Positions 10,910 through 42,481 are shown, counted from the first letter of the stretch. The stretch: DNA of 45,556 nt from an uncultured Pseudobdellovibrionaceae bacterium (GCA_934277865.1 CAKQVW010000001.1:1-45556); one strand, 5' to 3'. Notes: generated from the sequence alone by a model not told the origin. Numbers and translations are program-made.

Positions 10910-10912
10910 TCA

Positions 10913-14022: not shown

Positions 14023-14039
14023 GGAACCTCGTTTCCTTA
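14020..14039. terminator. Short AT-rich hairpin spanning both convergent stop codons (nuoN TAA and the thioredoxin-like gene TAA)
   Basis: TAAGGAA (14020-14026), 6-nt loop, TTCCTTA (14033-14039). Only 7 bp with no U-tract, so it is weak as an intrinsic terminator. Confidence 0.2.
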
Positions 14040-14639
14040 CAACGCTGTGTGAAGGCGGAGCATCTTACGGATGACGTCCGCCTTGACCATACGAGTGCTT
14101 CGCAGCCTCTCAAAGCCGTCTTTCATCACAAGTAGAGTTCCAGGAGAGCTGACCAGAAACCGCTCGGCAACTGACGGGTAGGCTCCAATGTCGATCTGAA
14201 ACACGGCAATTCGTCCAAACTCTGGCTCACGCAGAATGCCTTGAAGCACTGGAGCTTGCCGCTGCCAAACTGCGTCTGAGGCATGCGAGAAAATTAACAG
14301 AATGGGATTCCCGGCCTCCGCCAGCTGTTTGTAGGAGGCCTCTTCGAAACGAGTTGCCACGTAGGGCGCGGGATTGATCACCTTCGGGGCGGCCGCAGCA
14401 TCTGCCGCAGTTGTCTGCGTGGGCGCGGTGGGCGCGGTGGCCGCGGTTGCCGGTGTGGTTGACGTTGCGGTTCCCGCTGCGGTTGGTGCGTCTGGTGGCT
14501 TCACGGCGGGTGCTTGAGGCGCTGCCGGCGCCTGCGTTTGTGCGGCGCCCGAAACGGAGATCAAGCAGACGGTCAACATCGCGGCGCAAAGCCCGATGAA
14601 ATTGGCAGAGATTGCGAAAGAAGTGGGAGATGATTTCAT
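14037..14639 (-). CDS. Exported or membrane-anchored thioredoxin-fold protein lacking the CxxC active site, with an Ala/Pro/Thr-rich linker
   Basis: Start chosen at MKSSPTSFAISANFIGLCAAMLTVCLISVSGAAQ (ATG 14639), which forms an ATGA overlap with the carbamoyltransferase stop. About 70 aa of A/P/T low complexity follow. The C-terminal domain has thioredoxin-like layout (ILLIFSHASDAVWQRQAP where W-C-G-P-C would sit, and SSPGTLLVMKDG as the cis-Pro strand) but no Cys there. Confidence 0.65.
   Translation of the reverse strand: MKSSPTSFAISANFIGLCAAMLTVCLISVSGAAQTQAPAAPQAPAVKPPDAPTAAGTATSTTPATAATAPTAPTQTTAADAAAAPKVINPAPYVATRFEEASYKQLAEAGNPILLIFSHASDAVWQRQAPVLQGILREPEFGRIAVFQIDIGAYPSVAERFLVSSPGTLLVMKDGFERLRSTRMVKADVIRKMLRLHTAL
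14419..14454. repeat. In-frame 9-nt tandem repeat (GTGGGCGCG x2, then the degenerate units GTGGCCGCG and GTTGCCGGT) inside the A/P/T linker coding region
   Basis: Read directly from the sequence. It encodes the TAPTAPT/ATAAT part of the linker on the minus strand. Confidence 0.7.
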
Positions 14640-16336
14640 AAGAGAGCTCCTTTTGGCTTTTCGACGACAAAAGATCCGATTGCGAGAAGGTCCATCTGTG
14701 TGCCGAGGAAACATTCGATGGCGTGTTCGGGCCGACAGACGACAGGTTCACCTTTTCGATTAAAAGACGTATTGATGATGACAGGAACACCCGTACGTCT
14801 TGCGCTGGCGCGAATCAGTTTTCGCAAGAGTGGATTGCTAGTTTCATCGCAAGTTTGCACTCGCGCTGTTCCGTCGACGTGAGTGATTGCAGGTACAGCA
14901 TCTTGTTTATCGGGATGTACCGTTGGCGCCAGCAGCATGTAAGGAGATGAAATCTTGAGATCAAAATACTCTGAGCAATGCTCTTGAAGAACGATCGGAG
15001 CGAAGGGGCGGAAAGCCTCGCGTTTTTTGATACGTGAGTTCAAAATATCTTTCATTCCGGCAAACGCGGCGTTGCCGATGATCGAACGATTTCCCAAAGC
15101 ACGAGGGCCAAACTCCATTCGCCCCTGAAACCATCCGATGGCTTTGTTGTCAGCAATCGCTTGTCCGACATATTCGCAGAGGTCGTCTTGACTGAGCTTT
15201 TTTCCTTGAATGGAATACTTCTTCAGACAGCTTTCAATTTCATCATCGGAAAATTCGGGTCCAAGATACGCGTGGTCCATTTTTCTTCGGTCTGATTTTT
15301 TTAAAAGACCATGGTAGACAAACAGCGCAGCACCAACAGCGCCACCAGCATCACCGGCTGCCGGTTGAACGAAGATATCCTCGAAGTCGGTGGTCTTTAA
15401 GATCTTGGCGTTTGCCACGCAATTGAGGGTGACCCCACCGGCTAGACACAGGTTCTTCAGGCCGGTTCGTTGCTGCAGCAATTTTGCATTTAGGAGAATC
15501 ACTTCTTCAACGACATCTTGGCAGGCGGCAGCTAGATCGTAGTGCTCTTGTGTCCATGAAGCGTTGCGGTCGCGAGGTGGACCGAATACGTCTACCCACT
15601 TTGAACTCCACATCTGATTACCCGCGCGGAACGCGAAATACTCCTGATTGAGCTCAAAACTTCCATCAGGCATGATCTTTACGACATCGCGGATCTGTTT
15701 GCGGTATCTTTCGGGGGACCCGTATCCCGCAAGCCCCATCAGCTTTCCTTCGCCACCGTGGGCATCAAAGCCTAAAAAAACAGTGACGGCGGTGTAGAGA
15801 AGGCCAAGAGAGTTTGGGTAGTGAATTTCATTGAAGACCTCAATTGAGCGTCCCCGTCCGACACCAACCGAAAAGGTTGCCCACTCACCAACTCCATCTG
15901 CGGTGATGATGGCTGCCTCTTCGAAGCCTGAGGGAAAGAATGAGCTGGCCGCATGGCTAAGGTGGTGTTTAACAAAGTAGACGGGGCCTTTGTAGCCGAG
16001 CTCCTCTTCAATGGTCAGTGGAAGCGACAGCCGTCCGGCTAGCCACTTCGGCATGGCCCGAGAAAATGCCGGCCAGGAAAATGGCCAGCTGCGCAGATGA
16101 TCTTGGATCACTCGTGCAAACTTCAGGAATGGCTTTTCAAAATAGGCGATGTGTTCAACCTGATTGATATCGATGCCAGCTCGTTCAAGACAAAACCGAA
16201 TCGAATGAATGGGAAAAGCGCTGGTGTTCTTTTCGCGACTAAATCGCTCTTCCTGGGCGGCGGCGATAATCTCACCGTCTTTTAGCAGGCAGGCGGACGA
16301 GTCGTGATAAAAGCAAGAAACACCTAAGATATACAA
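14636..16336 (-). CDS. Carbamoyltransferase, NodU/CmcH family
   Basis: 566-aa ORF with the characteristic N-terminus (M)YILGVSCFYHDSSACLLKDGEIIAAAQEERFSREK and downstream HHLSHAASSFF. The TTG start at 16336 matches the family N-terminus. Confidence 0.9.
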   Translation of the reverse strand: MYILGVSCFYHDSSACLLKDGEIIAAAQEERFSREKNTSAFPIHSIRFCLERAGIDINQVEHIAYFEKPFLKFARVIQDHLRSWPFSWPAFSRAMPKWLAGRLSLPLTIEEELGYKGPVYFVKHHLSHAASSFFPSGFEEAAIITADGVGEWATFSVGVGRGRSIEVFNEIHYPNSLGLLYTAVTVFLGFDAHGGEGKLMGLAGYGSPERYRKQIRDVVKIMPDGSFELNQEYFAFRAGNQMWSSKWVDVFGPPRDRNASWTQEHYDLAAACQDVVEEVILLNAKLLQQRTGLKNLCLAGGVTLNCVANAKILKTTDFEDIFVQPAAGDAGGAVGAALFVYHGLLKKSDRRKMDHAYLGPEFSDDEIESCLKKYSIQGKKLSQDDLCEYVGQAIADNKAIGWFQGRMEFGPRALGNRSIIGNAAFAGMKDILNSRIKKREAFRPFAPIVLQEHCSEYFDLKISSPYMLLAPTVHPDKQDAVPAITHVDGTARVQTCDETSNPLLRKLIRASARRTGVPVIINTSFNRKGEPVVCRPEHAIECFLGTQMDLLAIGSFVVEKPKGALL

Positions 16337-16337
16337 A

Positions 16338-16496
16338 TCACAGCCCCGCGTAGATGAACGTCATGATAATGCCGGGCCCGATTTTGAAAAAGAGAACCGC
16401 AAACAAGACTAAGGTAATCAACAAAGGAGCCATGAAGTACAGTTTGTGCTCTCGAATGAGATGTTTCATTTCTCGGAAAAGCAGTCCGATTTTCAT
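16338..16496 (-). CDS. Small single-TM protein, DUF5989-like (carbamoyltransferase-associated)
   Basis: Not in the supplied track (52 aa). I translated it by hand as MKIGLLFREMKHLIREHKLYFMAPLLITLVLFAVLFFKIGPGIIMTFIYAGL. Its TGA lies 1 nt before the carbamoyltransferase TTG. The basic N-terminus, one TM and C-terminal FIY motif match what I remember of DUF5989 proteins found next to these carbamoyltransferases. Confidence 0.6.
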   Translation of the reverse strand: MKIGLLFREMKHLIREHKLYFMAPLLITLVLFAVLFFKIGPGIIMTFIYAGL

Positions 16497-16511
16497 GTCG
16501 CAACTCCGGAT

Positions 16512-16802
16512 TCAGGATTGAAACTTCGCAGCTTCGAGATCTTCATTGTAGCATTCTGCCGCGATCCAGTTCGAGTCTTTTGATATCGTTTTTGCTCCAA
16601 GAGATTTCGAGAAGAAAATCCGGGCGACGACACTCGTCGGACCAAGAACAAAGAAGTAAATAAAGAAGAGCGCCAAGGTGCCAAGAATCTTCTGCAGAAC
16701 GACCGTGACGAGAAACCATTCGAGGCCTCTAAGAGCTCGAAAGATAGGTCTGGGCAGGATCTTCTGCAGTGTCGAATGAAATTTTCCGAGTCTCTTCTCC
16801 AT
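16512..16802 (-). CDS. Small membrane protein, SxtJ-like (short form)
   Basis: 96-aa ORF with hydrophobic segments (WFLVTVVLQKILGTLALFFIYFFVLGPTSVVARIFF) followed by a polar tail. It sits directly upstream of the DUF5989-like ORF and the carbamoyltransferase, which is the conserved trio order as I recall it. Family assignment is from memory only. Confidence 0.5.
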   Translation of the reverse strand: MEKRLGKFHSTLQKILPRPIFRALRGLEWFLVTVVLQKILGTLALFFIYFFVLGPTSVVARIFFSKSLGAKTISKDSNWIAAECYNEDLEAAKFQS

Positions 16803-16890
16803 GAGAACTTCCAGTTTAAGTTCCGCTTCGTAAAATTCAAAGACAAATACAGTCTGGACGAAGGGCTAAGTCGGTGCCACGATCTTAGTC

Positions 16891-18537
16891 GTGAAGAAGT
16901 TAATCGCCCTCGGTCTAGGTGCTGTCTTTACACTGGTGATCTTCGAGATCGCCTTACGCCTTATTGGGTTCCAAGAGCTCTATTCTCGCGATGCACTCGG
17001 ACCAGGCGTGAAGTCCGAAATGCCGGCTATCATCTTCGTAGGGAACTCTCATACGATGGGTACTGGTGCTGCGCCTGGGAAAAGCTTTCCCGACCAATTC
17101 CGCGAGATCTTGAATGTTCGGCATGGGAAGAGTCCGTTTGAAATTGTGAACCTTGGCCGAGGCAATGCGAATTCGAGTTTTGTTGCGGATCAAATGCCGA
17201 AATTTCTCAAAACCTATCGGCCGCAGATTGTCGTCCTAATGACAGGTGAAACAAACTTCTGGAATCACCTTGGCTATTCAGATTTTGTCCAAAAGACGTC
17301 TCCCGGTCTGGAATCCATTGGTCTCAAATTTTACAACATGGCTTACTCGCTTCGGACCTTTCGCTTCATTCAACTCTTCAGCGAGTTTGTGATGCGCCCG
17401 AGGCAGGATCATCGATTTTTCTCAGACTATACCGAAGAGGATCGCGCATGGATCTGGGTGGCCTCAATGAACAATGCAAACATGTTCGATTCGTCGAAGA
17501 TGACACCTGCTGAAGCCAAAGATGCCTATGAGACTATCCGGAGCTATTCCGATAAACACGGATCTTCGCTGAGTCTTTTGGAAAGTCAGATCGAACTTCT
17601 GCCCAGACTGTGGAAGGGACGCCCCGAGCTCGAGGATGAGTGGAAAAAACAAATACGCGAGTACGCGGCAACGTTTGGGGAAAAGGGTTACAGCTATTAT
17701 CTCGACAGGCTGACCAACACGTACCTTCGTGAGTCGACGGATAGGACGATTCGTGAAGTGGCAGCTTCCATGCTTGCGAGACGGCCAAAGGACTTTGCTG
17801 ATTTACGTGAGGTTGTTGAATACCACCAGGAGGCTCGGTCCTATCGCAGCCGATCTATTGACGAGCAGATAGGTTTTTATACAGCGGTGTCGCTTGCATA
17901 TCCGACCCACGCCACAGCAAGGATATTTTTATGTAGCAAGCTTCGTCAGGCGAAGAGACTGCGCGAGGCGTTCGAAGTTGCAAAAGCTGGTATGGAGCTC
18001 AACCCTTTGGCGAATCAGTCCAACTGGATGAGTGAAATTCTTGTTACAGAGGAAGAGGCTCGAAAAGATACTTCGCCGGAGATGGCCAGTCTTATTGAAG
18101 ACATCGATAAATATCGGAAAGAATTTGTGCAGAGGTTTCCGCGCCATCGAGGAAGGGTCGCGAAAATCAGCGATGAAGAAATATTGAATTGGATTGAGTT
18201 CGACCTCGAACGAATCCGAAAATTGGTAGAGGAAAGCGGCGCAAAGTTGATGCTTCAGACCTATCCGCCAGAGCGTTGGGGCTCAGAAAAGCTTGTCGAC
18301 GCTCTCTTGCGTCGGTTTGCTGCAAAATACCAACTCCCACTATCTGACACGTCTCGTGAATTGATCCATCTAGAGCCGGATCCTAAGAAACGAGATCGAT
18401 TCTTCACGAAGATGTATGGTGATTACGACGCCCACTTAGGAGAAGAGGGCTACGCCGTCGTCGCCCGACTACTTGAGCGGGACTTCGTAGCGCAGGGTTG
18501 GCTCACTGACGCTCAAGGCGTCAGAGAGTCGAAATAA
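16891..18537 (+). CDS. Membrane-anchored SGNH/GDSL-like hydrolase with a large helical (TPR-like) insertion
   Basis: 548-aa ORF with a GTG start and an N-terminal TM (KKLIALGLGAVFTLVIFEIAL). Block I-like IIFVGNSHTMGTG, block II-like NLGRGNANS, block III-like VVLMTGETNFWN and a C-terminal block V-like YGDYDAHLGEEGYAVVA. About 300 aa of helical sequence lie between blocks III and V. Confidence 0.6.
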   Translation: MKKLIALGLGAVFTLVIFEIALRLIGFQELYSRDALGPGVKSEMPAIIFVGNSHTMGTGAAPGKSFPDQFREILNVRHGKSPFEIVNLGRGNANSSFVADQMPKFLKTYRPQIVVLMTGETNFWNHLGYSDFVQKTSPGLESIGLKFYNMAYSLRTFRFIQLFSEFVMRPRQDHRFFSDYTEEDRAWIWVASMNNANMFDSSKMTPAEAKDAYETIRSYSDKHGSSLSLLESQIELLPRLWKGRPELEDEWKKQIREYAATFGEKGYSYYLDRLTNTYLRESTDRTIREVAASMLARRPKDFADLREVVEYHQEARSYRSRSIDEQIGFYTAVSLAYPTHATARIFLCSKLRQAKRLREAFEVAKAGMELNPLANQSNWMSEILVTEEEARKDTSPEMASLIEDIDKYRKEFVQRFPRHRGRVAKISDEEILNWIEFDLERIRKLVEESGAKLMLQTYPPERWGSEKLVDALLRRFAAKYQLPLSDTSRELIHLEPDPKKRDRFFTKMYGDYDAHLGEEGYAVVARLLERDFVAQGWLTDAQGVRESK

Positions 18538-19672
18538 TTTTTTTCAACCGATTCAGCGCCTCATCAATTTCGGTCGTCGTTGTCGTGGGTGAAAAGCTAA
18601 ATCGCAACTGATGAGCTAGGCGGTCGTCGCGTCTCATTGCCAAAAGAACGGCGCTTCGATCGGATTTCCCTGTGCCGCAGGCGGCGCCTGTTGAACATGC
18701 AACCAGTTCGTCTGCGAGCTGCCGATGTAAGACCTTGGACTCAAATTTCGGAAAAGTAAAACTGAGGACATGGCAAAGCGAGCTCTTTTCAACCTCTCCA
18801 TTAAACTGCACATCGTGAAACCGTTTCTTTAGCTCGTCGATAGTGTGTCTTTTGATTTGTGAAAGATCGGTGATCGTTTTCGAGGTCCAAGTCGTCGAGG
18901 CTTTGGCAAAGGCTGAAATCAACTCGACAGAGGTTGTGCCAGGTCGAAGTCCTTTTTCTTGTTTTCCCCCATATACCAACGGGGAAATTTCGATGCCTTT
19001 CCTGATGTAGAGGGCACCGACGCCCTTTGGTCCACGAACCTTGTGGCCGCTGAGGGTCATCAGATCTACTGGCAGCGTGTTGATCTGAAATTCCGTGTGA
19101 CAAAAGCTTTGGCAGGCGTCGGCGTGAAACCGCACGCCGCGCTCTCGGCAGATGGTACCGATTTTTTCTAAATCTTGGATGGTTCCGATTTCATTGTTCC
19201 CGTGAGAGACCGAAACCAAAACCGTATTGGCTTGAATCAAACTTTTCAGGTTCGAAAGGTCCACATAGCCAAGGGCGTCCACTTGCACTTCGTCCCAGGC
19301 GATCAGTCCATCTTCTTTCATTCGTGCGGCGGTATTTGCGACGCTCGAGTGTTCGGTCGAAGCCGTGATGATATGGGGTAGGCCGGCTTTGTCAGAGGTG
19401 GTTCGCTTCCAATCAGAAGCAGATCGTTGCAGCACCCAGTTGTTGGCCTCTGTCCCGCCCGAGCAGAAGATGATTTCAGAAGGCAAGCTCCCAAGTTTCG
19501 TAGCGATTGTTTCGCGGGCCACTTCGAGAAGTGCGGCAGCCTTTGTCCCCGGGCGATGCGCCGAGGACGAGTTTGCGACTCCGGATTCCAGGAGCTCGAA
19601 CAGATGGTTGCGGGCTTCAGGCGCCATGGAGGTGGTTGCGGCATGATCGAGATAGATTTCTGTCTGCTTCAT
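18521..19672 (-). CDS. Cysteine desulfurase (class V aminotransferase, NifS/IscS-like)
   Basis: Start chosen at MKQTEIYLDHAATT (ATG 19672, GGAGGA 9 nt upstream). PLP-lysine motif SGHKVRGPKGVGALYIRKG. FCSGGTEANN. Active-site loop STGAACGTG. The 3' end overlaps the convergent SGNH gene by 17 nt. Confidence 0.85.
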   Translation of the reverse strand: MKQTEIYLDHAATTSMAPEARNHLFELLESGVANSSSAHRPGTKAAALLEVARETIATKLGSLPSEIIFCSGGTEANNWVLQRSASDWKRTTSDKAGLPHIITASTEHSSVANTAARMKEDGLIAWDEVQVDALGYVDLSNLKSLIQANTVLVSVSHGNNEIGTIQDLEKIGTICRERGVRFHADACQSFCHTEFQINTLPVDLMTLSGHKVRGPKGVGALYIRKGIEISPLVYGGKQEKGLRPGTTSVELISAFAKASTTWTSKTITDLSQIKRHTIDELKKRFHDVQFNGEVEKSSLCHVLSFTFPKFESKVLHRQLADELVACSTGAACGTGKSDRSAVLLAMRRDDRLAHQLRFSFSPTTTTTEIDEALNRLKKIISTL

Positions 19673-19718
19673 AGAAGTCGATCCTCCTCGCTTGCTAAAA
19701 ATCAAGCAAGTCGAGACA

Positions 19719-20789
19719 ATGGGCGGCGAGATGTCGGATCACAAGTCAGTCGCAATTTGCGACCTCAAATCAGGCAAAGAGGCTTCTTCGAAGACGTTGT
19801 GGTCTGTCGAGGAGGCCCTCGCGGCGAGAGTTAACAGCTGGGAGGGTTGGTTCTGCGCAGCTGGCTCCGAAAATCTGCATATCTCAGCAGACGGCAATCT
19901 CTTCTCGGCCACATGTCGTGTCGGTGGCTATCTTGGGAACGTGTTCGAAGGGCAGATGTCGCTTCCAGAAAAATGGATCGTCTGCACGAAAAAGTGGTGT
20001 ATGTGCGGAGCCGACATGCAAATCCGCAAAGCGAAAAATGCCGAGCTGATTGCGTCGGCCCGGCAGCCGCTCCCGAAAGATGCCGACGTCGAGTCACAGG
20101 GCGATGTCGCGAAGCGAGCAGCCGCAGCCTTGGCGGCCAATCTTGTCGTACCGGCGCAACACGATACCCATTTGGCATTTCCGAAATCGATCACGTGGGA
20201 CCTTTCGCGCCGATGCAATTATTCCTGTTCCTACTGCCATCCTTCTGTCTCGAACCAGTACGAGAGCCACCACTCACAGCGGACCTTGTTAGAAGCTGTT
20301 GATCGATTAGAGCGTCGTTTCTGCAGAGGAGAAAAGGCCAAGTGGGTTTTCACGGGTGGTGAGCCGACGATCAATCCTGCCTTTATGGATGTCGTGGATC
20401 GTATCAACTCGTATGGGCACACGGTTCATGTTCAAAGTAACGGGAGCCGTGGACCTGCTTACTTTCGCGAGCTCATCGCCAAAGCCTGTGTCGGATTGAG
20501 TCTGCACCTGGAAGCTGATGCGGTGGACCGGTTTCTAGAAACCTGCGCTGCGATTGTCGACGAAAAGGAAACAAATGAATTGGCGTCGCGAATGTGGTTT
20601 GGCGTACGCATCATGGTAGGACCCGGTCGTGTTGAAGAGGCCATTGCGCTCAAACGTCGATTGCAGGAGATCTCAGGATTCTCGAAGTGGGGAAATATCA
20701 ACATGAGTCCGTTGTACAAGCGTCTTAAGCAAGACGAACTGATGGAATACTCAAAAGATGAGTATCAAGAACTCCTAAGGCACGTTTAG
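19719..20789 (+). CDS. Radical SAM enzyme A with an extra N-terminal Cys cluster
   Basis: CX3CX2C motif RRCNYSCSYCHP plus the GGEP-type SAM motif FTGGEPTINP. An N-terminal auxiliary-cluster-like pattern precedes the core: WFCAAG...ATCRVGGYLGNVF...CTKKWCMCG. The start is uncertain (TTG 19692, ATG 19719 or ATG 19731). Divergent from the desulfurase gene. Confidence 0.75.
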   Translation: MGGEMSDHKSVAICDLKSGKEASSKTLWSVEEALAARVNSWEGWFCAAGSENLHISADGNLFSATCRVGGYLGNVFEGQMSLPEKWIVCTKKWCMCGADMQIRKAKNAELIASARQPLPKDADVESQGDVAKRAAAALAANLVVPAQHDTHLAFPKSITWDLSRRCNYSCSYCHPSVSNQYESHHSQRTLLEAVDRLERRFCRGEKAKWVFTGGEPTINPAFMDVVDRINSYGHTVHVQSNGSRGPAYFRELIAKACVGLSLHLEADAVDRFLETCAAIVDEKETNELASRMWFGVRIMVGPGRVEEAIALKRRLQEISGFSKWGNINMSPLYKRLKQDELMEYSKDEYQELLRHV

Positions 20790-22150
20790 TAAACTTTCAG
20801 GAATTCGTTGAGTTCGGGAAAAATCTTTGCAAACGAGGTTCCGCGTTCTGCGTCCAAGCGTCGAATGTAGTCACGCGTTTGTGGAAGCCGGTCCGAATGG
20901 TCGGCCTCATTCATCAAATTGATGATGCCTTGAATTTTGTTCGATTTCTTTTTGCTACGCTCTTCGAACGCCAAAAGCTTTTCGGTAACGATCTTCTTCA
21001 GCTCGGCCGGATAGTTCTGAATGGAAAGGTACGGAGGGTAGTGCACAACCCCGGGGTGGAAATAGCCGTTGAAACCTTTTGTCACCTTTTTGAAGTTTTG
21101 GTCCTCGATCCATTGTGCGTAGTCCGCCAAATAGAACATGTTCATCATGTGAACGGAGCAGAGAAGCATGACCTTCACACTCTCGGGCGATTCTTCGTCG
21201 AGGCATTTGAGGTTCGTCGCGATTGACTCCCAGTTCGCCGGGAAGCGCATGTAGTTATTCTTCTCTCCCCAACAATCAAGACTGATAAAAACCTCGACTA
21301 GCTTAAACTCCTTCCAAAGCGGGAACAGAGTTTTATCTAGAAGCGTGCCGTTTGTATGATAGCGAATCTGAATGTTCTTGGCGGCGCCAGTGCGGACGCA
21401 GGCTTCAACAAGCTTTCGTGTTTCGTCGAGCAACATCGGCTCGCCGCCACCCACGATGATCTCTCGCATGTTGGGAAGCATGGATTCGATCGAGTCCCAA
21501 AACGCAGGGTCCTTGTACCATTCGAATCGGGACTGATTGATCTGGCTCTTGTGCGCCCATTCACTGCGGACTTCGCTGGTTTCTGCTGTTTCGGCGATGC
21601 GCTTCGCAAGTGCTGTCCAACGACTCGAATCTTGAGGACGGCACATAACACATTGGAGATTGCACGTGTTACCTAGGCGCAAGTCGATTGCGACGATGTC
21701 CTCATTCAGCGTTCCATCTTCTTTTGTGCGATGAACGCGATCGAGGACAAATTCACGTCCGAAACGCTCTTTCCAAACTCGGTTCTCAGTGATTCGGTGT
21801 GACCGATAGCCGTTTTTCTCTTCGGCGTAACAGTGTGCACATGCTGAAACCTTTTCGCCCTTCAGCATTTTGAGTCGGGCAGATTTCAGGTAGTCCGAGT
21901 TCCACGCCGATTGCAGACTTTGATCATTCAAGTTCAGCTTGTTTTCGTTCTTGGCGACACAGCAAAGAATGGCCGAGCCGTCCGTGTAGGTGGCAAGATG
22001 GGTGAATGGAAGAACGCAAAACGTAGGCGAAATTCGGCCAAACTCATATGGGTCGCTCAGCGATTCTTCTTTTTGCGAGCCCTCGAGGTTTCTAACCGGA
22101 TCAACGTTTTTGAAGGGGAATTCGTCTTTCTTGCCAAAGAAACTAGCCAT
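20786..22150 (-). CDS. Radical SAM enzyme B with an N-terminal twitch/SPASM-like Cys domain
   Basis: 454 aa. N-terminal FCVLPFTHLATYTDGSAILCC...AWNS...ACAHC (Cys45, 63, 64, 104, 107), then the radical SAM motif GNTCNLQCVMC (Cys163/167/170) and GGGEPML. Its stop codon shares TTAG with the stop of convergent enzyme A. Confidence 0.8.
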   Translation of the reverse strand: MASFFGKKDEFPFKNVDPVRNLEGSQKEESLSDPYEFGRISPTFCVLPFTHLATYTDGSAILCCVAKNENKLNLNDQSLQSAWNSDYLKSARLKMLKGEKVSACAHCYAEEKNGYRSHRITENRVWKERFGREFVLDRVHRTKEDGTLNEDIVAIDLRLGNTCNLQCVMCRPQDSSRWTALAKRIAETAETSEVRSEWAHKSQINQSRFEWYKDPAFWDSIESMLPNMREIIVGGGEPMLLDETRKLVEACVRTGAAKNIQIRYHTNGTLLDKTLFPLWKEFKLVEVFISLDCWGEKNNYMRFPANWESIATNLKCLDEESPESVKVMLLCSVHMMNMFYLADYAQWIEDQNFKKVTKGFNGYFHPGVVHYPPYLSIQNYPAELKKIVTEKLLAFEERSKKKSNKIQGIINLMNEADHSDRLPQTRDYIRRLDAERGTSFAKIFPELNEFLKVY

Positions 22151-23474
22151 GAACGGAATATCCTTCCGCGTGCAGCAAGCTGCTGAGGTCGGGAAGCGTT
22201 TGTTCCATACGTTGCTTGCGGTGCAGGTCGAGCATGCGTGTGTAGTGGATGAAGTCTTTCATCTTTGCTTCATCTTGTTCGGGATGTTCGGAAAGCAAAT
22301 TGATGCAACTATCGATGGAATTCTTAAGGAACCGCTGAGTCTCGTAGGTCTTCGAGCGCGTCTTGTAGGCCTCAAGGCGGCGCACGGCCTCTTGCTTGGC
22401 GGAGTTTGGCAAGATCTGCGCGTTGATGTAGTTCGGGTCTGTTGCATACAAGAAGTCGACGTTGATGTCGCGTCCGGACTCAAGCGCGACACTCTCGATG
22501 TAATCGAGCAGTCTTGTAATCGTTAGCACATTGTAAATTTGCAGAACTGGCGTCACGCCAATCTGAACGTTTTTTGGCAGCTTGACCAGTTTACGGAAAT
22601 TCTTGTCGATGGTTTCCCATCGACTGAGATACCGAATGTATTCGTTCTCGGGGCCATGGCCATCTATCGAGGCATTGATCAAAACAAACTGGAAGTGCGG
22701 CAGGTATTCTAAAAATTTGTCCTGCACATTGGTGCAGTTGATGTTGAACATCAGAAAGATGTTCTTCGAGTGCCCGGAATCGATACAGGCCTGCATGAAT
22801 TTGTAATTGCGTTCGATCAGAGTGGGCTCACCGCCCGTCAGATAAACCTTGCGCAAATTTGGAATCGAGCGAATGACCTCATCCCAAAATAAATCTGACT
22901 CATACCATTCTGGTGTTTCAGCTGGTTTTTTGCCGCCATTGAAGCGGTTCCAAAACTCGCGGTACTCTTCGTTTTGGTCGTAGAGCTGCACGGTCTCGCG
23001 ATAGATCTGGCTTGAATTATAGGGGTTGCAGGATCGGCACTTGAGATTGCAGAGGTTGCCCAGTCGCAAATCCAAATAGAGCGCCGGTTTATCAAGCTTG
23101 AAATCATTTTTACGAGAAGCTTCGACACGCTCTTCAATTTCGGTGCGCGCCTTGTTCATCCACTCTTCGTTGTGCATTTCGCGATAGGATGTTTTTCCAA
23201 TCGACTCTTGGAAATAACACAGCTCACACCCTGGAACTTGCTCGCCTTCGAGCATGCCTTTGCGAATGCTGCGCATGTGATTGGAGTTCCACGCCGCTTC
23301 CAATGGTTCGACGCCGGCGCGGTAACCGTGCCCATCGTCTTTCTTCACCATGCCGCCGCCTTTGGCGACGCAACAGAATCCAACTTTGCCGTTTGACTGA
23401 ACGACTTGTTCGATCCACGGGTAGACGCAGAACGTGTTGGCCGACAATTTGGAATCGCGATTGGATCCTGCCAT
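22143..23474 (-). CDS. Radical SAM enzyme C, paralog of B, with an N-terminal twitch/SPASM-like Cys domain
   Basis: 443 aa. FCVYPWIEQVVQSNGKVGFCC...AWNS...GCELC (Cys16, 34, 35, 83, 86), then GNLCNLKCRSC (Cys142/146/149) and TGGEPTL. An 8-nt overlap with the start of enzyme B suggests translational coupling. Confidence 0.8.
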   Translation of the reverse strand: MAGSNRDSKLSANTFCVYPWIEQVVQSNGKVGFCCVAKGGGMVKKDDGHGYRAGVEPLEAAWNSNHMRSIRKGMLEGEQVPGCELCYFQESIGKTSYREMHNEEWMNKARTEIEERVEASRKNDFKLDKPALYLDLRLGNLCNLKCRSCNPYNSSQIYRETVQLYDQNEEYREFWNRFNGGKKPAETPEWYESDLFWDEVIRSIPNLRKVYLTGGEPTLIERNYKFMQACIDSGHSKNIFLMFNINCTNVQDKFLEYLPHFQFVLINASIDGHGPENEYIRYLSRWETIDKNFRKLVKLPKNVQIGVTPVLQIYNVLTITRLLDYIESVALESGRDINVDFLYATDPNYINAQILPNSAKQEAVRRLEAYKTRSKTYETQRFLKNSIDSCINLLSEHPEQDEAKMKDFIHYTRMLDLHRKQRMEQTLPDLSSLLHAEGYSVHG

Positions 23475-25378: not shown

Positions 25379-26272
25379 CTACCTGGCAGTTTTGTCGCCT
25401 TTTGTGGGCTTAGCGGCCGGTGCGACTTCCGACGATTGTGGTGCGGGGAAAAACTGCACACACTTTCCAGCGATATCAGAGAGGGCGGCGCGGTAGCTTC
25501 CATCCGCATCAGAGGCTTTCAAAGAAAAGAGATCCATCGATTTCACTAGAGTGTGAGACTCCGGAGTCACCTCTTTGCCTTTCTCTTTGCCGCTGGAGAA
25601 CGCATCAACCAACTGACCGAGTAAGTCGGAGGCGGCTTTCTTCGGAGCTGTCTGTGCCTGCGGAACGGGAAAGGCATCCTTTGCAAACGAAGAATGCAGC
25701 TTTCGGACATTGGATTCATGAGTGGCCTTGTAGCCCGAGAGCAAACTTCGCAAATTCGCCGGGATTGACTTCATCTGATAGAACGAGTCGCAGCTTTGTG
25801 CTTTTTTAGCGAATTCACTCAATGTTTTTGCATTCGATTGTGAGCGTAGGAGTTCGCACACTTCGCGTGTCAACGTTACGGCGACGCCGTTGTAGGAGTA
25901 CGTGTGTGAAGCGACCTCTTGCTTTTTAAAGACCGTCAATGCTCCAAGATGCTTTTCATCCCGATCCTTGCGCCAGGTAAGAACCTCTTCAGATTCATCC
26001 GCAAACGCAGAGAACTGAATCGCCATCGAATTGTCCTTTGAGACCACGCGCTGAGTGGCACCATCGTCTGCTGGTACTGGAGGAAACCAATATTGCGGGA
26101 CAACACCGAGATTCAGTTCGCCGTTGAACTTAGCACCAGGAAAATCCGTGAGCGTCGCATCGTAGACCGCGAACTGGCCAAGGCTTGGAGCCCTTTTTGC
26201 ATCGTCCGCGGCATGAACAAACACTGGGAGAGTGAGAGCGGCAATCACTAATGTTTCTTTTATAGCTTTCAT
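25379..26272 (-). CDS. Secreted hypothetical protein
   Basis: Start chosen at MKAIKETLVIAALTLPVFVHAADD (signal peptide, AHA-A site) with a purine-rich SD. No recognisable domain. Confidence 0.6.
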   Translation of the reverse strand: MKAIKETLVIAALTLPVFVHAADDAKRAPSLGQFAVYDATLTDFPGAKFNGELNLGVVPQYWFPPVPADDGATQRVVSKDNSMAIQFSAFADESEEVLTWRKDRDEKHLGALTVFKKQEVASHTYSYNGVAVTLTREVCELLRSQSNAKTLSEFAKKAQSCDSFYQMKSIPANLRSLLSGYKATHESNVRKLHSSFAKDAFPVPQAQTAPKKAASDLLGQLVDAFSSGKEKGKEVTPESHTLVKSMDLFSLKASDADGSYRAALSDIAGKCVQFFPAPQSSEVAPAAKPTKGDKTAR

Positions 26273-26307
26273 CGTCTCACCCTTCCTCATAGACCGACCA
26301 ACTTTCC

Positions 26308-28746
26308 TTAGGCTGCCGAAGCGGCCGCTGTGTCTTTCGACTTTTTGCCGCCCTTTGTGCTGTGGCGTTTTGTTTTACCGGTCTTTTCGTCAAGAGCGGC
26401 ATCCAGCGCCATCTGCAGAACTTCATCCAAATGTTCGACGAAGATGAAGCTCAATTGTTTGCGGAACTCTTCGGGGATATCTTGAACGTCCTTCTGGTTC
26501 TGGAAGGGGATCAAGACAGTTTTCACGCCGTGGTTCAGTGCCGCGAGAGCTTTCTCACGAATGCCGCCCACTGGAAGAACACGTCCCGAGAGAGTGACCT
26601 CGCCTGTCATCGCGATGTCTGTGCGTACCGGCGTATTTGTCATCAAGCTGATGAGTGCCGTCGCCATCGTGATACCTGCGCTGGGTCCATCCGTAGGGAT
26701 GGCTCCCGCCGGGATGTGCACGTGACCCGTGTGGTTCTCGCACCAGTCTGGATCGATGCCAAGTTCCTCGGCGTGTGCGCGAGCGTAGCTGAGTGCCGCC
26801 TGCGCCGACTCTTTCATCACGTCGCCCATTTGGCCCGTGAGAACAAGTCCACCTTTGCCCTTCATTTTCAGGGCTTCGATGTGCAGAACTTCGCCGCCTG
26901 CTTGTGCCCAAGCGAGACCAGTTACGATACCCACTTGTGAATCTTCCATCTTCTCGTCGCGAATAAAGCGCGCCGGTCCAAGGAGTTCAGCAATTTTCTC
27001 TGCCGTGCAGATGACCTTTTCTTTGTGGCCAAGCACAACACCTTTTGCAACCTTACGGCAGACCGAACCAACTTCGCGCTCGAGGTTACGAAGACCTGCT
27101 TCGCGAGTGTAGGCTCCGATGAGGTAGCGGATGCCATCATCTGTGAACTCGATGTTCTCAGACGTGACGCCGTTTGCTTCCATCTGGCGCTCGATCAAGT
27201 GTTTCTTCGTGATCAAGAGCTTGTCGTTCTCTGTGTAACCAGAGATTTGAATGAGCTCCATACGGTCGCGAAGAGCCGGTGGAATGTTCTCAAGTACGTT
27301 CGCAGTCGCGATGAACAGCGCATTCGAAAGATCGAAGTCGACGTTCAGGTAGTGATCGCGGAACGCATGGTTCTGTTCGGGATCAAGAACTTCAAGCATC
27401 GCTGCCGAGGGGTCTCCGCGGTAGTCGCTGCCCAGTTTGTCGATCTCGTCGAGAACGATAACGGGGTTCTTTGTTTTAACTTGCTTCAACGCTTGGATGA
27501 TTTTCCCAGGCATCGCGCCGACGTACGTGCGACGGTGACCACGAATCTCGGCTTCGTCTTTCACGCCACCAAGTGCGACGCGGAAGTACTCGCGGCCCAT
27601 CGATCTTGCGATCGAGCGACCAAGCGAAGTTTTACCAACGCCGGGCGGTCCACAGAAGCAGAGGATTGGCCCTTTGCGTGAATCTGTTTTCAGTTTGCGT
27701 ACAGCCAAGAACTCGAGAATACGGTCCTTTGCTTTTGCCAACTCGTAGTGATCTTCATCGAGGATCATTTTTGCGCGATCGAGGTCAAGGTTGTCCTCTG
27801 TCGACTTCGACCATGGCAGATCGATCAGCCAGTCCAGATAAGTGCGAAGCATAGAGGCTTCACTTGCATCTGGGTGCATGCGCTCGAGGCGGCCAAGTTG
27901 TTTCATCGCTTCATTGTGCACGGTCTCGGGCATTCCTGCCTTGACCAGCTTTTCGCGAAGTTCTTCCATCTCTTCGCCCTTCTGATCTTGTTCGCCAAGC
28001 TCAGACTTGATAGCTCGCATTTGCTCGCGCAAGAAGTACTCGCGCTGGCTTTTCGACATCTCGTCTTTTGCTGTTGAACGGATCTTCTGTTGCATCGACA
28101 GAACTTCGAGTTCCGCCGTGAGAATCTCGTTTACAAGCTTCAGGCGCTCGACCGAGTCTGTCGATTCGAGTACGCGTTGAGCGTCCGAGACCTTCAGACC
28201 GAGGTTCGATGCGATGAGATCCGCGAGGCGACCTGGTTCGGTCACATCATCAAGGATCAAAAGAATGTCTGGTGAGAGCGAACGGCCGAGAGCGATAATC
28301 TTCTCTAGCTGTTCACGAGCCGTGCGCATCAGCGCTTCGTGCTCGATAGGAAGTTCCTTCGAATCCTTGGCATCTACGGTTTCCGAGAGCTTCTCGACCG
28401 CGACTTCGAAGTTCGGAGACGACTTCACATAACGAGTGATGCGTCCTTTGGCTTCGCCTTGAATAAGGATTTTTACCCGACCGTCCGCAAGCTTTCGCAT
28501 GCGCATGATACGAGCGATTGTTCCGACCTGATAGATTGTATTCTCAGTCGGATTCTCTTCGGTGATTTCACGCTGTGAAGCAAGGAAGATCAGTCGGTTT
28601 TTACCGAGCGCCTCTTCTACCGAACGAATCGATGCTTCTCGTCCAACGAAGAGAGGCAAAATCATGTAAGGGAATACCACGATGTCTCTCACTGGGAGCA
28701 TCGGAAGTGATTCCGGAATCTCTAGAACTTTATCGTCAAAACCCAT
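26308..28746 (-). CDS. lon: ATP-dependent Lon protease (LonA)
   Basis: 812 aa. LON N-domain LPMLPVRDIVVFPYMILPLFVGRE. AAA+ Walker A GPPGVGKTSLGRSIA. Protease-domain DGPSAGITMATAL with the catalytic Ser. Confidence 0.97.
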   Translation of the reverse strand: MGFDDKVLEIPESLPMLPVRDIVVFPYMILPLFVGREASIRSVEEALGKNRLIFLASQREITEENPTENTIYQVGTIARIMRMRKLADGRVKILIQGEAKGRITRYVKSSPNFEVAVEKLSETVDAKDSKELPIEHEALMRTAREQLEKIIALGRSLSPDILLILDDVTEPGRLADLIASNLGLKVSDAQRVLESTDSVERLKLVNEILTAELEVLSMQQKIRSTAKDEMSKSQREYFLREQMRAIKSELGEQDQKGEEMEELREKLVKAGMPETVHNEAMKQLGRLERMHPDASEASMLRTYLDWLIDLPWSKSTEDNLDLDRAKMILDEDHYELAKAKDRILEFLAVRKLKTDSRKGPILCFCGPPGVGKTSLGRSIARSMGREYFRVALGGVKDEAEIRGHRRTYVGAMPGKIIQALKQVKTKNPVIVLDEIDKLGSDYRGDPSAAMLEVLDPEQNHAFRDHYLNVDFDLSNALFIATANVLENIPPALRDRMELIQISGYTENDKLLITKKHLIERQMEANGVTSENIEFTDDGIRYLIGAYTREAGLRNLEREVGSVCRKVAKGVVLGHKEKVICTAEKIAELLGPARFIRDEKMEDSQVGIVTGLAWAQAGGEVLHIEALKMKGKGGLVLTGQMGDVMKESAQAALSYARAHAEELGIDPDWCENHTGHVHIPAGAIPTDGPSAGITMATALISLMTNTPVRTDIAMTGEVTLSGRVLPVGGIREKALAALNHGVKTVLIPFQNQKDVQDIPEEFRKQLSFIFVEHLDEVLQMALDAALDEKTGKTKRHSTKGGKKSKDTAAASAA

Positions 28747-29055: not shown

Positions 29056-29415
29056 TTATGCGAAGATGCGTTCGGTTTGTTCTTGTTCTTCTTTGCAGGC
29101 AATGCAGAGAGTGGCAACTGGGCGAGCTTTCAGGCGTGCGATCCCGATGGGTTCTTCGCACACTTCGCAAAGACCATACGAGCCATCAACGATGCGTTGA
29201 AGGGCGCGATCGATTTTTGGAAGTAGCATGTGAGCGCGTTCCTGGTCGCGAACCGCTCGAGTGAGATCGAGTTCGGAAGTTGCGCGATCGCCTTCGTCGC
29301 CGCGCTCACCGACAGGCGCAAGAGTCTCGTGACGAAAACTCTGCATCTTATTGATAAGTTCGGAACGTTGATCGAGCAGCATCAACTTGAAAGAATTCAA
29401 TTCGCGTGTACGCAT
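29056..29415 (-). CDS. DksA/TraR-family RNA polymerase-binding regulator with a C4 zinc finger
   Basis: Start chosen at MRTRELNSF (ATG 29415, GGGAG SD), giving 119 aa. Coiled-coil tip DEGDRA (DxxDxA). Zinc finger CEVC-x17-CIAC. Confidence 0.85.
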   Translation of the reverse strand: MRTRELNSFKLMLLDQRSELINKMQSFRHETLAPVGERGDEGDRATSELDLTRAVRDQERAHMLLPKIDRALQRIVDGSYGLCEVCEEPIGIARLKARPVATLCIACKEEQEQTERIFA

Positions 29416-29497
29416 AGAACACTCCCTCGCTTTGCGATGCACATTAGTTGTGCACCAAATAACCCGCCGCGACCCCACTCGCAACAGGTTGTGACAG

Positions 29498-29526
29498 CTT
29501 CTAAGGAGTCTGTAAGGTCTTGTCAA
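29498..29526 (-). promoter_or_regulatory. Candidate promoter for the zinc-finger dksA-like gene (T8 tract, TTGACA-N17-TAGAAG)
   Basis: Minus strand reads TTTTTTTTGACA agaccttacagactcct TAGAAG. The -35 is at 29521-29526 and the -10 at 29498-29503, about 80 nt upstream of the ATG. The -10 lacks the terminal T. Confidence 0.3.
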
Positions 29527-29729: not shown

Positions 29730-30119
29730 CTAAGAGCGAACAAATCGACGGCTCATCGCCTCGCGAATCTCAGCTCCTTCGATGGAGAGGCGAGTCCATG
29801 GAAGGGCGCGCAGGCGCTCGACCTCGATCGGCTCGTCGGTCTCTTCGCAGATCCCGTAGCTGCCGCGTTCGATGCGAGCGAGGGCGCTTTCGATTTCAAG
29901 CAAGCGAGTTTTGGCTCGTTGCTGCTCACATAAGAAATCGTTCTCGGCGAGAAGTGCCATAGTCATGTCGCCTTCGTCGCTCCCTCCGCGGTCTCGACTT
30001 TCGAACTCCCGCATCGCGGCCCGTGAACGGTTAAGAAGCTCCGCTTTCATTTCTACCAACCGTGCGCGGCACTCCCGAATGAATTGATCCGTCAGACCTG
30101 TTTTCGAAGCTTGCGACAT
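29730..30119 (-). CDS. DksA/TraR-family paralog lacking the Cys4 zinc finger
   Basis: 129 aa with a strong SD (GGAGAGGAGGA). Tip motif DEGDMT. The finger region is CEET-x17-SIEG, so only 1 of the 4 Cys is retained. Confidence 0.8.
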   Translation of the reverse strand: MSQASKTGLTDQFIRECRARLVEMKAELLNRSRAAMREFESRDRGGSDEGDMTMALLAENDFLCEQQRAKTRLLEIESALARIERGSYGICEETDEPIEVERLRALPWTRLSIEGAEIREAMSRRFVRS

Positions 30120-38124: not shown

Positions 38125-38766
38125 ATGGGGAAGAAAAGTTCGTCAAGTCAGAATACAAGTGGCTCTGGTCTCGTGCTCTCGACCAGCGAATACTTCGTTC
38201 ACGCTGTGGAGATGGCGTTCCACGAACGTCAGTTCAGAACCTTTCCATCGGCTCAATCCTATCTCGTCAAACTTCTCGAGTATTACGTGCCGGCTGGAAA
38301 TCTCTTCGATGAAGTCGACGACAGCGGCCGTCGCCGCCGTTCGACGCTAGCGGAGTCCTATCTGAAGGCGATGAATGCGGAACCCGCACTCCGCGCTGAC
38401 ATGCTCAAAAAGCTTGCGGACCGGGCGCTCTACATCGCGGGCTTCTTTAGTGACTCTTTGCAGCGGAAACTGGTGGACGTCGACTACTACCAGGAAATGG
38501 GAATGACCGCCTACAATGTCCTTGCCGATTCAAGTCGTGAGGACACGACGGCGAAAGTCTATCGCGAATTCGCGACAAAATTTCTTAGGTTCACCGAAAT
38601 TCTTTCGACCATCGCCTTGCAGTCGCGGGTGCAGGACGAGGCCAATATCATGCGCCTGTACGAGACTTATGCAAAGACAGGTTCGGATATGGCACGTGAG
38701 AAACTCCTGGAGCGTGGCCTCATCGCCGTTCCGTTATCTGATCTGAAAAAGCCGACAAAACAGTAG
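38125..38766 (+). CDS. Hypothetical cytoplasmic protein (helical, no recognised domain)
   Basis: 213-aa ORF with balanced composition. The AAGGAGGA lies 15 nt upstream of the ATG, which is long spacing. It ends 32 nt before tatB. Confidence 0.55.
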   Translation: MGKKSSSSQNTSGSGLVLSTSEYFVHAVEMAFHERQFRTFPSAQSYLVKLLEYYVPAGNLFDEVDDSGRRRRSTLAESYLKAMNAEPALRADMLKKLADRALYIAGFFSDSLQRKLVDVDYYQEMGMTAYNVLADSSREDTTAKVYREFATKFLRFTEILSTIALQSRVQDEANIMRLYETYAKTGSDMAREKLLERGLIAVPLSDLKKPTKQ

Positions 38767-38798: not shown

Positions 38799-39125
38799 AT
38801 GTTCGATATAGGCTTCGGAGAAATGATCATGCTGGCGGCGATCGCTCTTATTGCGATCGGCCCTAAGCAATTGCCCGAAGTTGCACGCACGGTCGGTAAG
38901 CTCATCGGAGAATTCAAAAAAGCCGTCGGCGATGTCACGGACACGGTGGCGAATGCCAGAAACGAAACTGACCGTGCGCTTCGCAATGTGAGTGATGATC
39001 TCATCAAGTCGATCAAAGAGGCTCAGCAAGCCAAACCGATCGAGCCATTGCCCGATCATCCAGGCGATTCAGAGTTTGTTCACGTGGACCCACCAGCAGA
39101 CGATAAGACCGACGGAAAGAGCTGA
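38799..39125 (+). CDS. tatB: Twin-arginine translocase subunit TatB (TatA/B family)
   Basis: 108 aa. N-terminus MFDIGFGEMIMLAAIALIAIGPKQLPEVARTVGKLIGEFKKA parallels E. coli TatB (MFDIGFSEL...GPQRLP), followed by an amphipathic helix and an acidic tail. Confidence 0.8.
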   Translation: MFDIGFGEMIMLAAIALIAIGPKQLPEVARTVGKLIGEFKKAVGDVTDTVANARNETDRALRNVSDDLIKSIKEAQQAKPIEPLPDHPGDSEFVHVDPPADDKTDGKS

Positions 39126-39874
39126 TGAAAGACGCGCGGGAAGATAATCTCACACTTGTCGATCATCTCACGGAGTTGCGTGATCGTTTGATCAAAGCCG
39201 CCTGGGCGGTTGCTCTCACGACAGCGGTCTGCTTTTATTTCTCCGAGGCTATCTTCAATCTGGTTCGACACCCGATTCAGGCACATTTGCCGGAAGGTGG
39301 ACTCGTCTTCACCAATCCGATGGATAAGTTCATTGCTCACATGAAACTCTCGGTGGTGGCGGGAGTTATTCTCGCTTGTCCTGCGTGGCTCTATCATGCG
39401 TGGATGTTTGTTGCGCCCGGACTGTACGCGCATGAGAAGAAGTATTCCCTCGCATTTGTGACGGCGGGTATTGGGCTCTTTCTCTCGGGTGTTGCGTTTG
39501 CGTATTTCCTCGTACTTCCAAGCGCCTTCCAATTTCTTTTCAATTTTGGTGGGTCGGTCGACAAACCGCTCATCACGATCTCGGAATACATGTCGTTTTT
39601 TGCCACGATGATTTTGGTCTTTGGCGCCTCGTTTGAGTTGCCCCTGATTTTGGTGGCGCTTGGGGCTTTGGGGATCGTTTCCAGCGACACGCTTCGAGAA
39701 AAGCGTCGGTACGCGATTGTCGCGCTGGCCACCATTGCGGCCGTCATCACGCCGCCGGATGTGCTCAGCATGATGATGCTTTTGGTGCCTCTTGCGGCCC
39801 TCTATGAGATTTCGATTTTGATCGTACGCGTCGTCGAGCGTCGACGAACGCGAGCCCTTCAGCCACTGGCGTGA
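39125..39874 (+). CDS. tatC: Twin-arginine translocase subunit TatC
   Basis: 249 aa, six-TM. LVDHLTELRDRLIKA N-terminus and ITPPDVLSM motif. TGATG overlap with tatB. Confidence 0.93.
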   Translation: MKDAREDNLTLVDHLTELRDRLIKAAWAVALTTAVCFYFSEAIFNLVRHPIQAHLPEGGLVFTNPMDKFIAHMKLSVVAGVILACPAWLYHAWMFVAPGLYAHEKKYSLAFVTAGIGLFLSGVAFAYFLVLPSAFQFLFNFGGSVDKPLITISEYMSFFATMILVFGASFELPLILVALGALGIVSSDTLREKRRYAIVALATIAAVITPPDVLSMMMLLVPLAALYEISILIVRVVERRRTRALQPLA

Positions 39875-39995
39875 ACCACAATCTGAGCATCGCACTGCGC
39901 CGCGCTACTGTTTTTATCTCGACTACGTTGGACTTGGTTCGGCAGACTTAAGTCGTTAGGCCAGGGCCTATTCGGACTAAAGTGGAGGAATCATC

Positions 39996-40190
39996 ATGGC
40001 TGATGTTCTTGTAGTAACGAGCAAAGTTAAGAAACTCATCAAAGAAAAAGGCGAGTGCAACACGTCGAGCGAGACAGTGGATGTACTTTCTAAGGCAATC
40101 GAGCGCCTCTGCATGAAGGGCATCGAGAGCGCAAAAGCAGACGGCCGCAAAACCGTCATGGCTCGCGATATCGTTATCGATCATTTGTAA
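39996..40190 (+). CDS. Histone-fold DNA-binding protein (bacterial histone, Bdellovibrio HBb/Bd0055-like)
   Basis: 64-aa ORF MADVLVVTSKVKKLIKEKGECNTSSETVDVLSKAIERLCMKGIESAKADGRKTVMARDIVIDHL. It has a helix-loop-long helix-loop-helix layout. AKADGRKTVMARDI parallels the archaeal HMf-type junction ARHAGRKTIKAEDI. GGAGGA sits 6 nt upstream of the ATG and a hairpin lies just downstream. Confidence 0.8.
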   Translation: MADVLVVTSKVKKLIKEKGECNTSSETVDVLSKAIERLCMKGIESAKADGRKTVMARDIVIDHL

Positions 40191-40195: not shown

Positions 40196-40216
40196 GTTTG
40201 GGCCGGTGGCCCAAAC
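40196..40216 (+). terminator. Perfect 9-bp GC-rich hairpin 5 nt after the histone gene stop
   Basis: GTTTGGGCC-GGT-GGCCCAAAC. The downstream TGCTATTCG is only weakly U-rich. Confidence 0.4.
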
Positions 40217-40270
40217 TGCTATTCGCGCATGGGCGCAAAAGAGATGCCCCTGTGTCGATTCAGCTCGGCT

Positions 40271-40287
40271 CCCCTCGAAAAGAGGGG
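40271..40287. terminator. Second hairpin in the histone/ligA convergent spacer (CCCCTC-GAAAA-GAGGGG)
   Basis: It lies 10 nt beyond the ligA stop on the minus strand. There is no clear U-tract on either strand. Confidence 0.25.
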
Positions 40288-40297
40288 CACCGGGCTT

Positions 40298-42481
<2,184 letters not shown>

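Follow-up and report, generated by a model that had tools for sequence, protein, structure and literature searches.

A Bd0055/HBb-type histone gene and its conserved surroundings in an uncultured Bdellovibrionota member

Background

Bacterial histones are an active topic. Histone-fold chromatin proteins are found in all domains of life, and the way in which they bind DNA is debated. The locus described here raises the question of whether a short reading frame between tatC and ligA encodes such a protein and, if so, which class of histone it represents and how it might act on DNA. The reading frame lies in a stretch of 45,556 nucleotides, referred to as the window, and was first picked out by an annotation made from the DNA sequence by eye. 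Our analysis indicates that its product is, with high probability, an ortholog of Bd0055 (also called HBb) of Bdellovibrio bacteriovorus, that is, an alpha3-truncated 'bacterial dimer' histone from an uncultured member of the Bdellovibrionota, for which a mechanism of action can be transferred from the studied ortholog. The regions on both sides of the gene carry additional conserved elements, and these are described below.

The gene and its reading frame

The histone gene and the features that immediately define it are as follows.

39996-40190, plus strand: histone coding sequence, 64 amino acids, stop codon included; Bd0055/HBb ortholog
39984-39989, plus strand: Shine-Dalgarno sequence GGAGGA, read from the sequence, followed by a 6-nucleotide spacer and the ATG
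39125-39874, plus strand: tatC, upstream neighbour (Pfam TatC, 250 bits)
40298-42481, minus strand: ligA, encoding NAD-dependent DNA ligase, convergent downstream neighbour with all LigA Pfam domains present

The first-pass annotation described a stand-alone gene with its own spacer and a consensus ribosome binding signal, and these elements are present as described. Translation of the reading frame yields a protein identical to the one quoted, the spacer between GGAGGA and ATG reads ATCATC, and the tatC stop codon at 39874 leaves 121 nucleotides upstream of the histone ATG. The placement between tatC and ligA is borne out by the Pfam domains of both neighbours, and tatC is itself preceded by a tatA/B gene. 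A GGAG or GGAGG core is kept at the position of the Shine-Dalgarno sequence in most related loci.

With only 64 codons, and with antisense reading frames of 60 and 96 amino acids overlapping it, this stretch might be suspected of being a chance intergenic open reading frame. The probability of such an accident is vanishingly small. A database search returns 1071 homologs of the protein, with 83-100% identity among the 120 matches listed, and finds the identical protein on 102 contigs. An exact-sequence look-up locates it in 161 blocks of public assemblies, and the gene order is the same as in the window in all six of the places listed by that look-up. The JGI label for the exact protein in public databases is 'histone H3/H4'. 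Compared with L001, a Bdellovibrionota MAG that is the closest genome in the GTDB collection, the reading frame has ten synonymous and no non-synonymous differences, and dN/dS is 0.02-0.07 in comparisons that are not saturated. Selection on the reading frame is strongly purifying. These homologs and this selection, together with the strong Shine-Dalgarno sequence and the existence of crystal structures for an 87.5%-identical protein, refute a chance origin.

Fold and closest relatives

Sequence searches place the protein next to Bd0055/HBb. The top phmmer matches in the PDB are the B. bacteriovorus HD100 entries 8FVX and 8FW7 (E = 3.6e-32) and 8CMP, 9EZZ and 9F0E (E = 4.1e-32). The close match in length and sequence stated in the first-pass annotation is real, as both proteins have 64 amino acids, align from end to end and are identical at 56 of 64 residues (87.5%). 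Next comes the archaeal histone HTkC (9F2C) at E = 5.6e-6, then the Methanopyrus kandleri doublet histone 1F1E. Leptospira HLp (9QT0) is matched at E = 0.002. The HMf-type histones reach only E = 0.13-0.41, a pairwise similarity that is not significant.

Among profile models, Pfam CBFD_NFYB_HMF (PF00808) matches with 24.1 bits, above its gathering cut-off of 21.4. The protein is not filed under Pfam DUF1931, where its 17.9 bits stay below the cut-off of 21.8, or under NCBIfam archaea_histone, where it scores 32.6 bits (E = 8e-8) against a cut-off of 50. The latter shortfall is expected, because the protein belongs to a divergent bacterial branch.

An AlphaFold2 monomer model was built on 26 family members, and helices were assigned with DSSP. 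The model has a mean pLDDT of 80.2 and contains helices at residues 2-19, 25-48 and 56-59. This is the layout that was proposed from the sequence, consisting of alpha1, loop L1 (ECNTS), alpha2, loop L2 (DGRKTVM) and a short alpha3. The best five Foldseek matches in the PDB are all HBb/Bd0055 (TM 0.76-0.83, rmsd 1.8-2.4 Å), and the model superposes on 8FVX at an rmsd of 1.8 Å. Leptospira HLp, archaeal HTkC and nucleosomal histones follow at lower ranks. The proposal of a single histone fold is therefore backed by a profile match above cut-off and by structural matches whose top ranks are all histones. As far as sequence can tell, nothing in the protein speaks against orthology with Bd0055/HBb.

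Several known systems help to define what this protein is. HBb/Bd0055 shares its length, helix layout and phylum, and differs from it by eight conservative substitutions. Leptospira HLp (9QT0-2), of the DUF1931 or face-to-face alpha3 histone type, resembles the window protein in being a short singlet histone of bacterial origin whose alpha3 is truncated; the two are 36% identical, with a Foldseek TM of 0.71-0.80. Residues of the R48/N52 type allow face-to-face histones to assemble into a torus-like tetramer, and bacterial dimer histones are without them (PMC11390915). The alpha3-truncated HTkC of Thermococcus kodakarensis is the best sequence match outside Bdellovibrio (41% identity, TM 0.68-0.75) and has the SKVK and GRKT motifs in common with the window protein, but it is archaeal, has 59 amino acids and belongs to another category of the alpha3 family.

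Nucleosomal archaeal histones such as HMfA and HMfB resemble the window protein in the histone fold, the RKT sequence of loop L2 and the RD clamp, and in the use of L1-L2 and alpha1 to contact DNA. They differ in that alpha2 of the window protein is about one turn shorter and its alpha3 has one turn instead of three. The resemblance to these proteins that was noted at first sight holds at the level of profiles and fold, and it does not extend to direct pairwise comparison. The link to archaeal histones thus rests on profiles and fold, since the pairwise similarity to HMf is not significant by BLASTP or phmmer. Within the alpha2-L2-alpha3 junction the likeness is nevertheless visible, as AKADGRKTVMARDI of the window protein agrees at 8 of 14 positions with ARHAGRKTIKAEDI, which we take to be the corresponding HMfB sequence.

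Functional residues and class membership

Structural and simulation studies have defined the residues by which Bd0055 dimerizes and contacts DNA. Its DNA contacts are T8, S9, K10, K12, T23, S24, A25, K52, T53 and R57, to which molecular dynamics simulations add K16 and N22. The dimer core comprises V11, L31, I35, L38 and I59, and an RD clamp is formed by R51 and D58, with D49 (PMC11317129, PMC10627809). Mutation of S45, A48 and I61 to the archaeal residues restores DNA wrapping (PMC10627809).

These residues are conserved in the window protein. All of the DNA contacts are identical with the sole exception of A25S, and the dimer core, the RD clamp with D49, and the non-tetramerizing residues S45, A48 and I61 are identical throughout. 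The eight substitutions relative to Bd0055 are E3D, Q20E, M21C, A25S, I28V, Q37R, L40M and V43I. All are conservative, and several are nearer to the family consensus than the Bd0055 residue. In an alignment of 26 family members, 34 of 64 columns are invariant. They include R51-K52-T53...D58 (RKTxxxD), S9-K10, K12, K13 and K16, each of which is present in the window protein.

The 'bacterial dimer' category of the alpha3-truncated family was defined by sequence clustering (PMC11390915), and the window histone has every feature of the category that a sequence or a model can reveal. It clusters with HBb over its full length (phmmer E = 3.6e-32) and consists of a single histone fold with no other domain. 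In the model, alpha3 is cut to the 3-4 residues typical of the category (four, at 56-59), and alpha2, with 24 residues (25-48), is shorter by 4-5 than in nucleosomal histones. The tetramerization residues, namely the equivalent of archaeal His49 and the face-to-face residues R48/N52, are absent.

Three other classes have to be weighed against this assignment. An archaeal nucleosomal histone of the HMf kind, which would wrap DNA into tetramers or hypernucleosomes, could be suggested by the E-value of 8e-8 for archaea_histone and by the features held in common with HMf histones, namely the fold, the RKT loop and the RD clamp. Such a protein is very improbable here. Apart from the sub-threshold bit score, the HMf/HTk nucleosomal class is contradicted by the 4-residue alpha3 and the 24-residue alpha2, by Ala48 at the position of the tetramerization histidine, beside S45 and I61, by TM values of only about 0.5 to HMfB (1A7W) and HPhA, and by a BLASTP comparison with HMfB that yields no alignment. 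In Bd0055 itself, wrapping was gained only by the triple mutant A48H/S45F/I61L, and bacterial singlet histones are without the sprocket arginine; the absence of the tetramerization histidine and of a hypernucleosome likewise sets the HBb type apart from HMf histones (PMC10627809). The face-to-face, HLp-type class also fails to fit, as the DUF1931 score shows. A sequence-specific NF-Y/CBF (NFYB/HAP3) transcription factor subunit could be envisaged because PF00808 spans NF-YB-type factors as well as archaeal histones, and one NCBI record for a 94%-identical protein is titled 'NFYB/HAP3 family transcription factor subunit'. This role is without support and has hardly any likelihood. A search of the 45.6-kb window found no second histone-fold reading frame that could serve as a partner, and the ortholog is a homodimer whose genome-wide DAP-seq binding is motif-free (PMC11317129) and which is as abundant as a chromatin protein (PMC10627809).

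Proposed action on DNA

The mechanism proposed for the window histone is that of its ortholog. Two 7-kDa chains would associate through antiparallel alpha2 helices to form a 14-kDa histone-fold homodimer. The dimer would contact DNA through its L1-L2 loops (T23, S24, K52, T53, R57) and the first turn of alpha1 (T8, S9, K10, K12), and would bind without sequence preference and without wrapping. Homodimerization and non-specific binding are suggested by the conservation of the dimer-core and DNA-contact residues. Because the protein has no His/Phe/Leu tetramerization residues and its alpha2 and alpha3 are short, it should be unable to build nucleosome-like wrapping oligomers. Each dimer might bend DNA by about 84 degrees or, alternatively, dimers might coat straight DNA at high occupancy.

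In the cell, the protein would act as an abundant, probably essential nucleoid-associated protein. For this host, abundance and essentiality are extrapolated from the ortholog. The strong Shine-Dalgarno sequence and the very low dN/dS are compatible with abundance, nucleoid association and essentiality, but are no proof of them. The closest functional analogues, though not homologs, are HU and IHF, which are also small, abundant dimers that bend DNA without sequence specificity (PMC11317129, PMC11390915). Their fold is unrelated. HU and IHF reach into the minor groove with beta-arms, whereas loops and helix N-termini of the histone touch phosphates.

The in vivo DNA-binding mode of the HBb family is disputed between bending (PMC11317129) and filament formation (PMC10627809), and a 2025 preprint still terms the in vivo function of bd0055 unknown (10.1101/2025.09.24.678257). 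HBb was found to be a dimer by SEC-MALS and to bind non-specifically across the genome, and tethered particle motion (TPM) and ligase circularization show bending, which is put at about 84 degrees for each dimer and compacts DNA in an HU-like way (PMC11317129). In the other account, straight DNA is sheathed by an end-on filament of Bd0055 (PMC10627809). It is possible, although on balance doubtful, that the main in vivo mode of the window protein is this end-on nucleohistone filament and not bending by isolated dimers. Each dimer would then use a single L1-L2 interface, with about one dimer per 2.5 bp. The filament is documented by the co-crystal 8FW7, by analytical ultracentrifugation that places more than 60 Bd0055 dimers on 147 bp, and by the lack of FRET between DNA ends in the presence of Bd0055 (PMC10627809). 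Features implicated in this mode, namely the A-[DE]-V-L tail at the N terminus, the basic ridge and the residues S45, A48 and I61, are also present in the window protein. Against it, TPM compaction, ligase-mediated circularization, supercoil constraint, the lack of MNase protection and molecular dynamics simulations of HBb all favour bending (PMC11317129), and the stoichiometry of a filament would demand very high cellular copy numbers. Neither mode is favoured over the other by anything in the window.

Gene neighbourhood in related genomes

The surroundings of the histone gene were compared in 80 related genome loci. Convergent ligA lies downstream of the histone gene in 74 of them, and gatC and gatA follow in 58 and 56, respectively. 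In only 16 of the 80 loci does tatC adjoin the histone gene, and these represent a sub-clade that includes the window. The histone-ligA-gatCA order is therefore conserved across Bdellovibrionota, whereas tatC as a neighbour is confined to a sub-clade. B. bacteriovorus shares the convergent ligA-gatCA arrangement downstream and has another neighbour in place of tatC. Its complete chromosomes are among the 80 loci and carry the histone gene at about 44-50 kb, which fits the locus number Bd0055.

The degree of conservation differs sharply along this neighbourhood. When the window is compared with the B. bacteriovorus loci, the histones are 88-89% identical, while LigA and GatA from the same loci are 53-55% and 60-64% identical. 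The values for LigA and GatA identify the host as a distant relative of B. bacteriovorus, with only about 50-60% identity between the other proteins of the two, and the contrast with the histone indicates that the latter is far more constrained than its neighbours.

Two further reading frames occur near the gene in this sub-clade or in its relatives. L001 carries an insert of about 1 kb between the histone gene and ligA, and this DNA contains a 247-amino-acid reading frame (5369-6112, plus strand). This insert is missing from the window and from the six listed places that encode the exact protein (L081-L086). Directly upstream of tatA/B-tatC in the window is a reading frame of 213 amino acids without a Pfam match (38125-38766, plus strand). 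It is detected at the same position in 12 related loci with 42-96% identity, and tatC adjoins the histone gene in all 12.

The upstream region

The spacer between tatC and the histone gene contains two features.

39909-39995, plus strand: 87-nucleotide leader or promoter-proximal block, with 0 differences in 87 nucleotides between the window and the L001 lineage
39896-39904, no strand assigned: palindrome TGCGnCGCA, present as the one-mismatch copy TGCGCCGCG, 100 nucleotides before the histone ATG

The invariance of the 87-nucleotide block points to a leader or promoter under strong constraint. The first 34 nucleotides of the same spacer have seven differences between the window and L001, and pS at the synonymous sites of the coding sequence is 0.24. 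The block holds the sequence CTCGAC-N24-TTAAGT, which aligns with a TTGTCA...TTTTA/TTAAGT block in other Bdellovibrionota. A consensus scan of the 121-nucleotide spacer found no sigma-70 promoter, and no spacing of -35 and -10 elements within the conserved block gave a convincing one. A terminator scan of the interval from tatC to the histone gene was negative as well.

The palindrome is a recurrent feature of related loci. An exact TGCGnCGCA is located 85-145 nucleotides upstream of the histone ATG in 22 of the 80 loci (L002, L003, L006, L011, L014, L016, L021, L023, L025, L026, L030, L031, L040, L044, L046, L047, L049, L050, L056, L059, L061 and L076), and it occurs only five other times in the 693 kb that these loci comprise. 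Its central base alternates between C and G among close relatives. The whole window contains no exact copy. TGCGnCGCA may be the binding site of a regulator.

Hairpins in the 3' region

Three hairpins are predicted between the histone stop codon and the end of the convergent ligA gene.

40196-40216, plus strand: hairpin 1, GTTTGGGCC-ggt-GGCCCAAAC, a perfect 9-bp stem with a 3-nucleotide loop, 5 nucleotides after the stop codon
40223-40258, plus strand: hairpin 2, in the predicted 3' untranslated region, from the minimum-free-energy fold
40262-40299, plus strand: hairpin 3, from the fold, a G+C-rich stem (40262-40296) running into TTTT and abutting the ligA stop codon

The segment 40185-40300, which extends from the last six nucleotides of the histone coding sequence to the ligA stop, folds into these three hairpins with -57 kcal/mol (z = -4.7). 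Hairpin 1 had been proposed as an expression signal. Its perfect stem and its position just after the stop codon are as described, but a function as a terminator is not borne out, because no T-run follows the stem and it is thus no canonical intrinsic terminator. TTTT follows only the third hairpin, and this hairpin comes closest to being a terminator for the histone transcript. A terminator scan that requires at least five T in eight positions flagged neither hairpin 1 nor hairpin 3. Across the whole window, searches for Rfam families and tRNA genes gave no matches.

Comparison with L001 shows which of these structures are kept. Alignment and folding of L001 5199-5275, which covers both hairpins 1 and 2, reveal that the stem of hairpin 1 is retained with two compensatory pair changes, one G-U pair and a 28-nucleotide loop insertion, and that the core stem of hairpin 2 is retained with one compensatory change. 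The 28-nucleotide insertion is itself a hairpin. A test across the 80 loci that allowed loops of at most 8 nucleotides had scored hairpin 1 as lost in L001; this result is an artefact, as the outer stem is kept. Hairpin 3 is absent from L001, where the roughly 1 kb of extra DNA precedes ligA. The histone 3' region could not be aligned in more distant relatives. Hairpins 1 and 2 appear to belong to the histone transcript, because they are kept by compensatory changes despite the insertions in L001.

The gene had been described as monocistronic and probably highly expressed. Neither a sigma-70 promoter nor a canonical terminator was found, and both properties are ones that we infer. One can speculate that the palindrome, the 87-nucleotide leader and hairpins 1 and 2 form a so far undescribed system for control of histone dosage in Bdellovibrionota, although we consider this unlikely. 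If such a system exists, it could comprise a dedicated regulator-binding site and mRNA-stability elements, and it might time histone synthesis to the late growth phase, when bd0055 transcripts peak (10.1101/2025.09.24.678257).

Other loci in the window

Several other loci were recorded in the window. A cluster on the plus strand at 6506-14022 contains nuoA, nuoH, nuoJ, nuoK, nuoL, nuoM and nuoN. No genes for the peripheral arm (nuoB-G, nuoI) are present between nuoA and nuoH, making this a membrane-arm-only complex I cluster. At 19692-23474 there are three radical SAM genes side by side, of which one has a SPASM domain. They adjoin genes for a class V aminotransferase and a carbamoyltransferase (14636-19705), and together these genes may be a cluster for peptide or cofactor modification. 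Two tandem genes for DksA/TraR-type C4 zinc-finger proteins (29056-29526 and 29730-30119, both minus strand) are located next to lon (26308-28746, minus strand). Three reading frames on the minus strand, at 1885-2832, 14037-14714 and 25379-26290 (315, 225 and 303 amino acids), have no Pfam match at E <= 1e-5.

Significance

The first-pass annotation identified the histone correctly and ranked it as the most notable element of the window. The ranking cannot be maintained, as two papers have already characterized the family structurally and biochemically (PMC10627809, PMC11317129) and a third has catalogued it (PMC11390915). A Bd0055 homolog is reported in 67% of Bdellovibrionota genomes by Hocher et al. 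(PMC10627809). The window histone is an unexceptional addition to a family whose description dates from 2023-2024.

The locus therefore adds no new kind of protein, but a further ortholog from the phylum in which the family had been defined. Its value is modest. It provides a natural variant with eight conservative substitutions for comparative biochemistry, and the conserved histone-ligA-gatCA arrangement and the non-coding elements located upstream and downstream of the gene could serve as a guide for studies of the control of histone expression.
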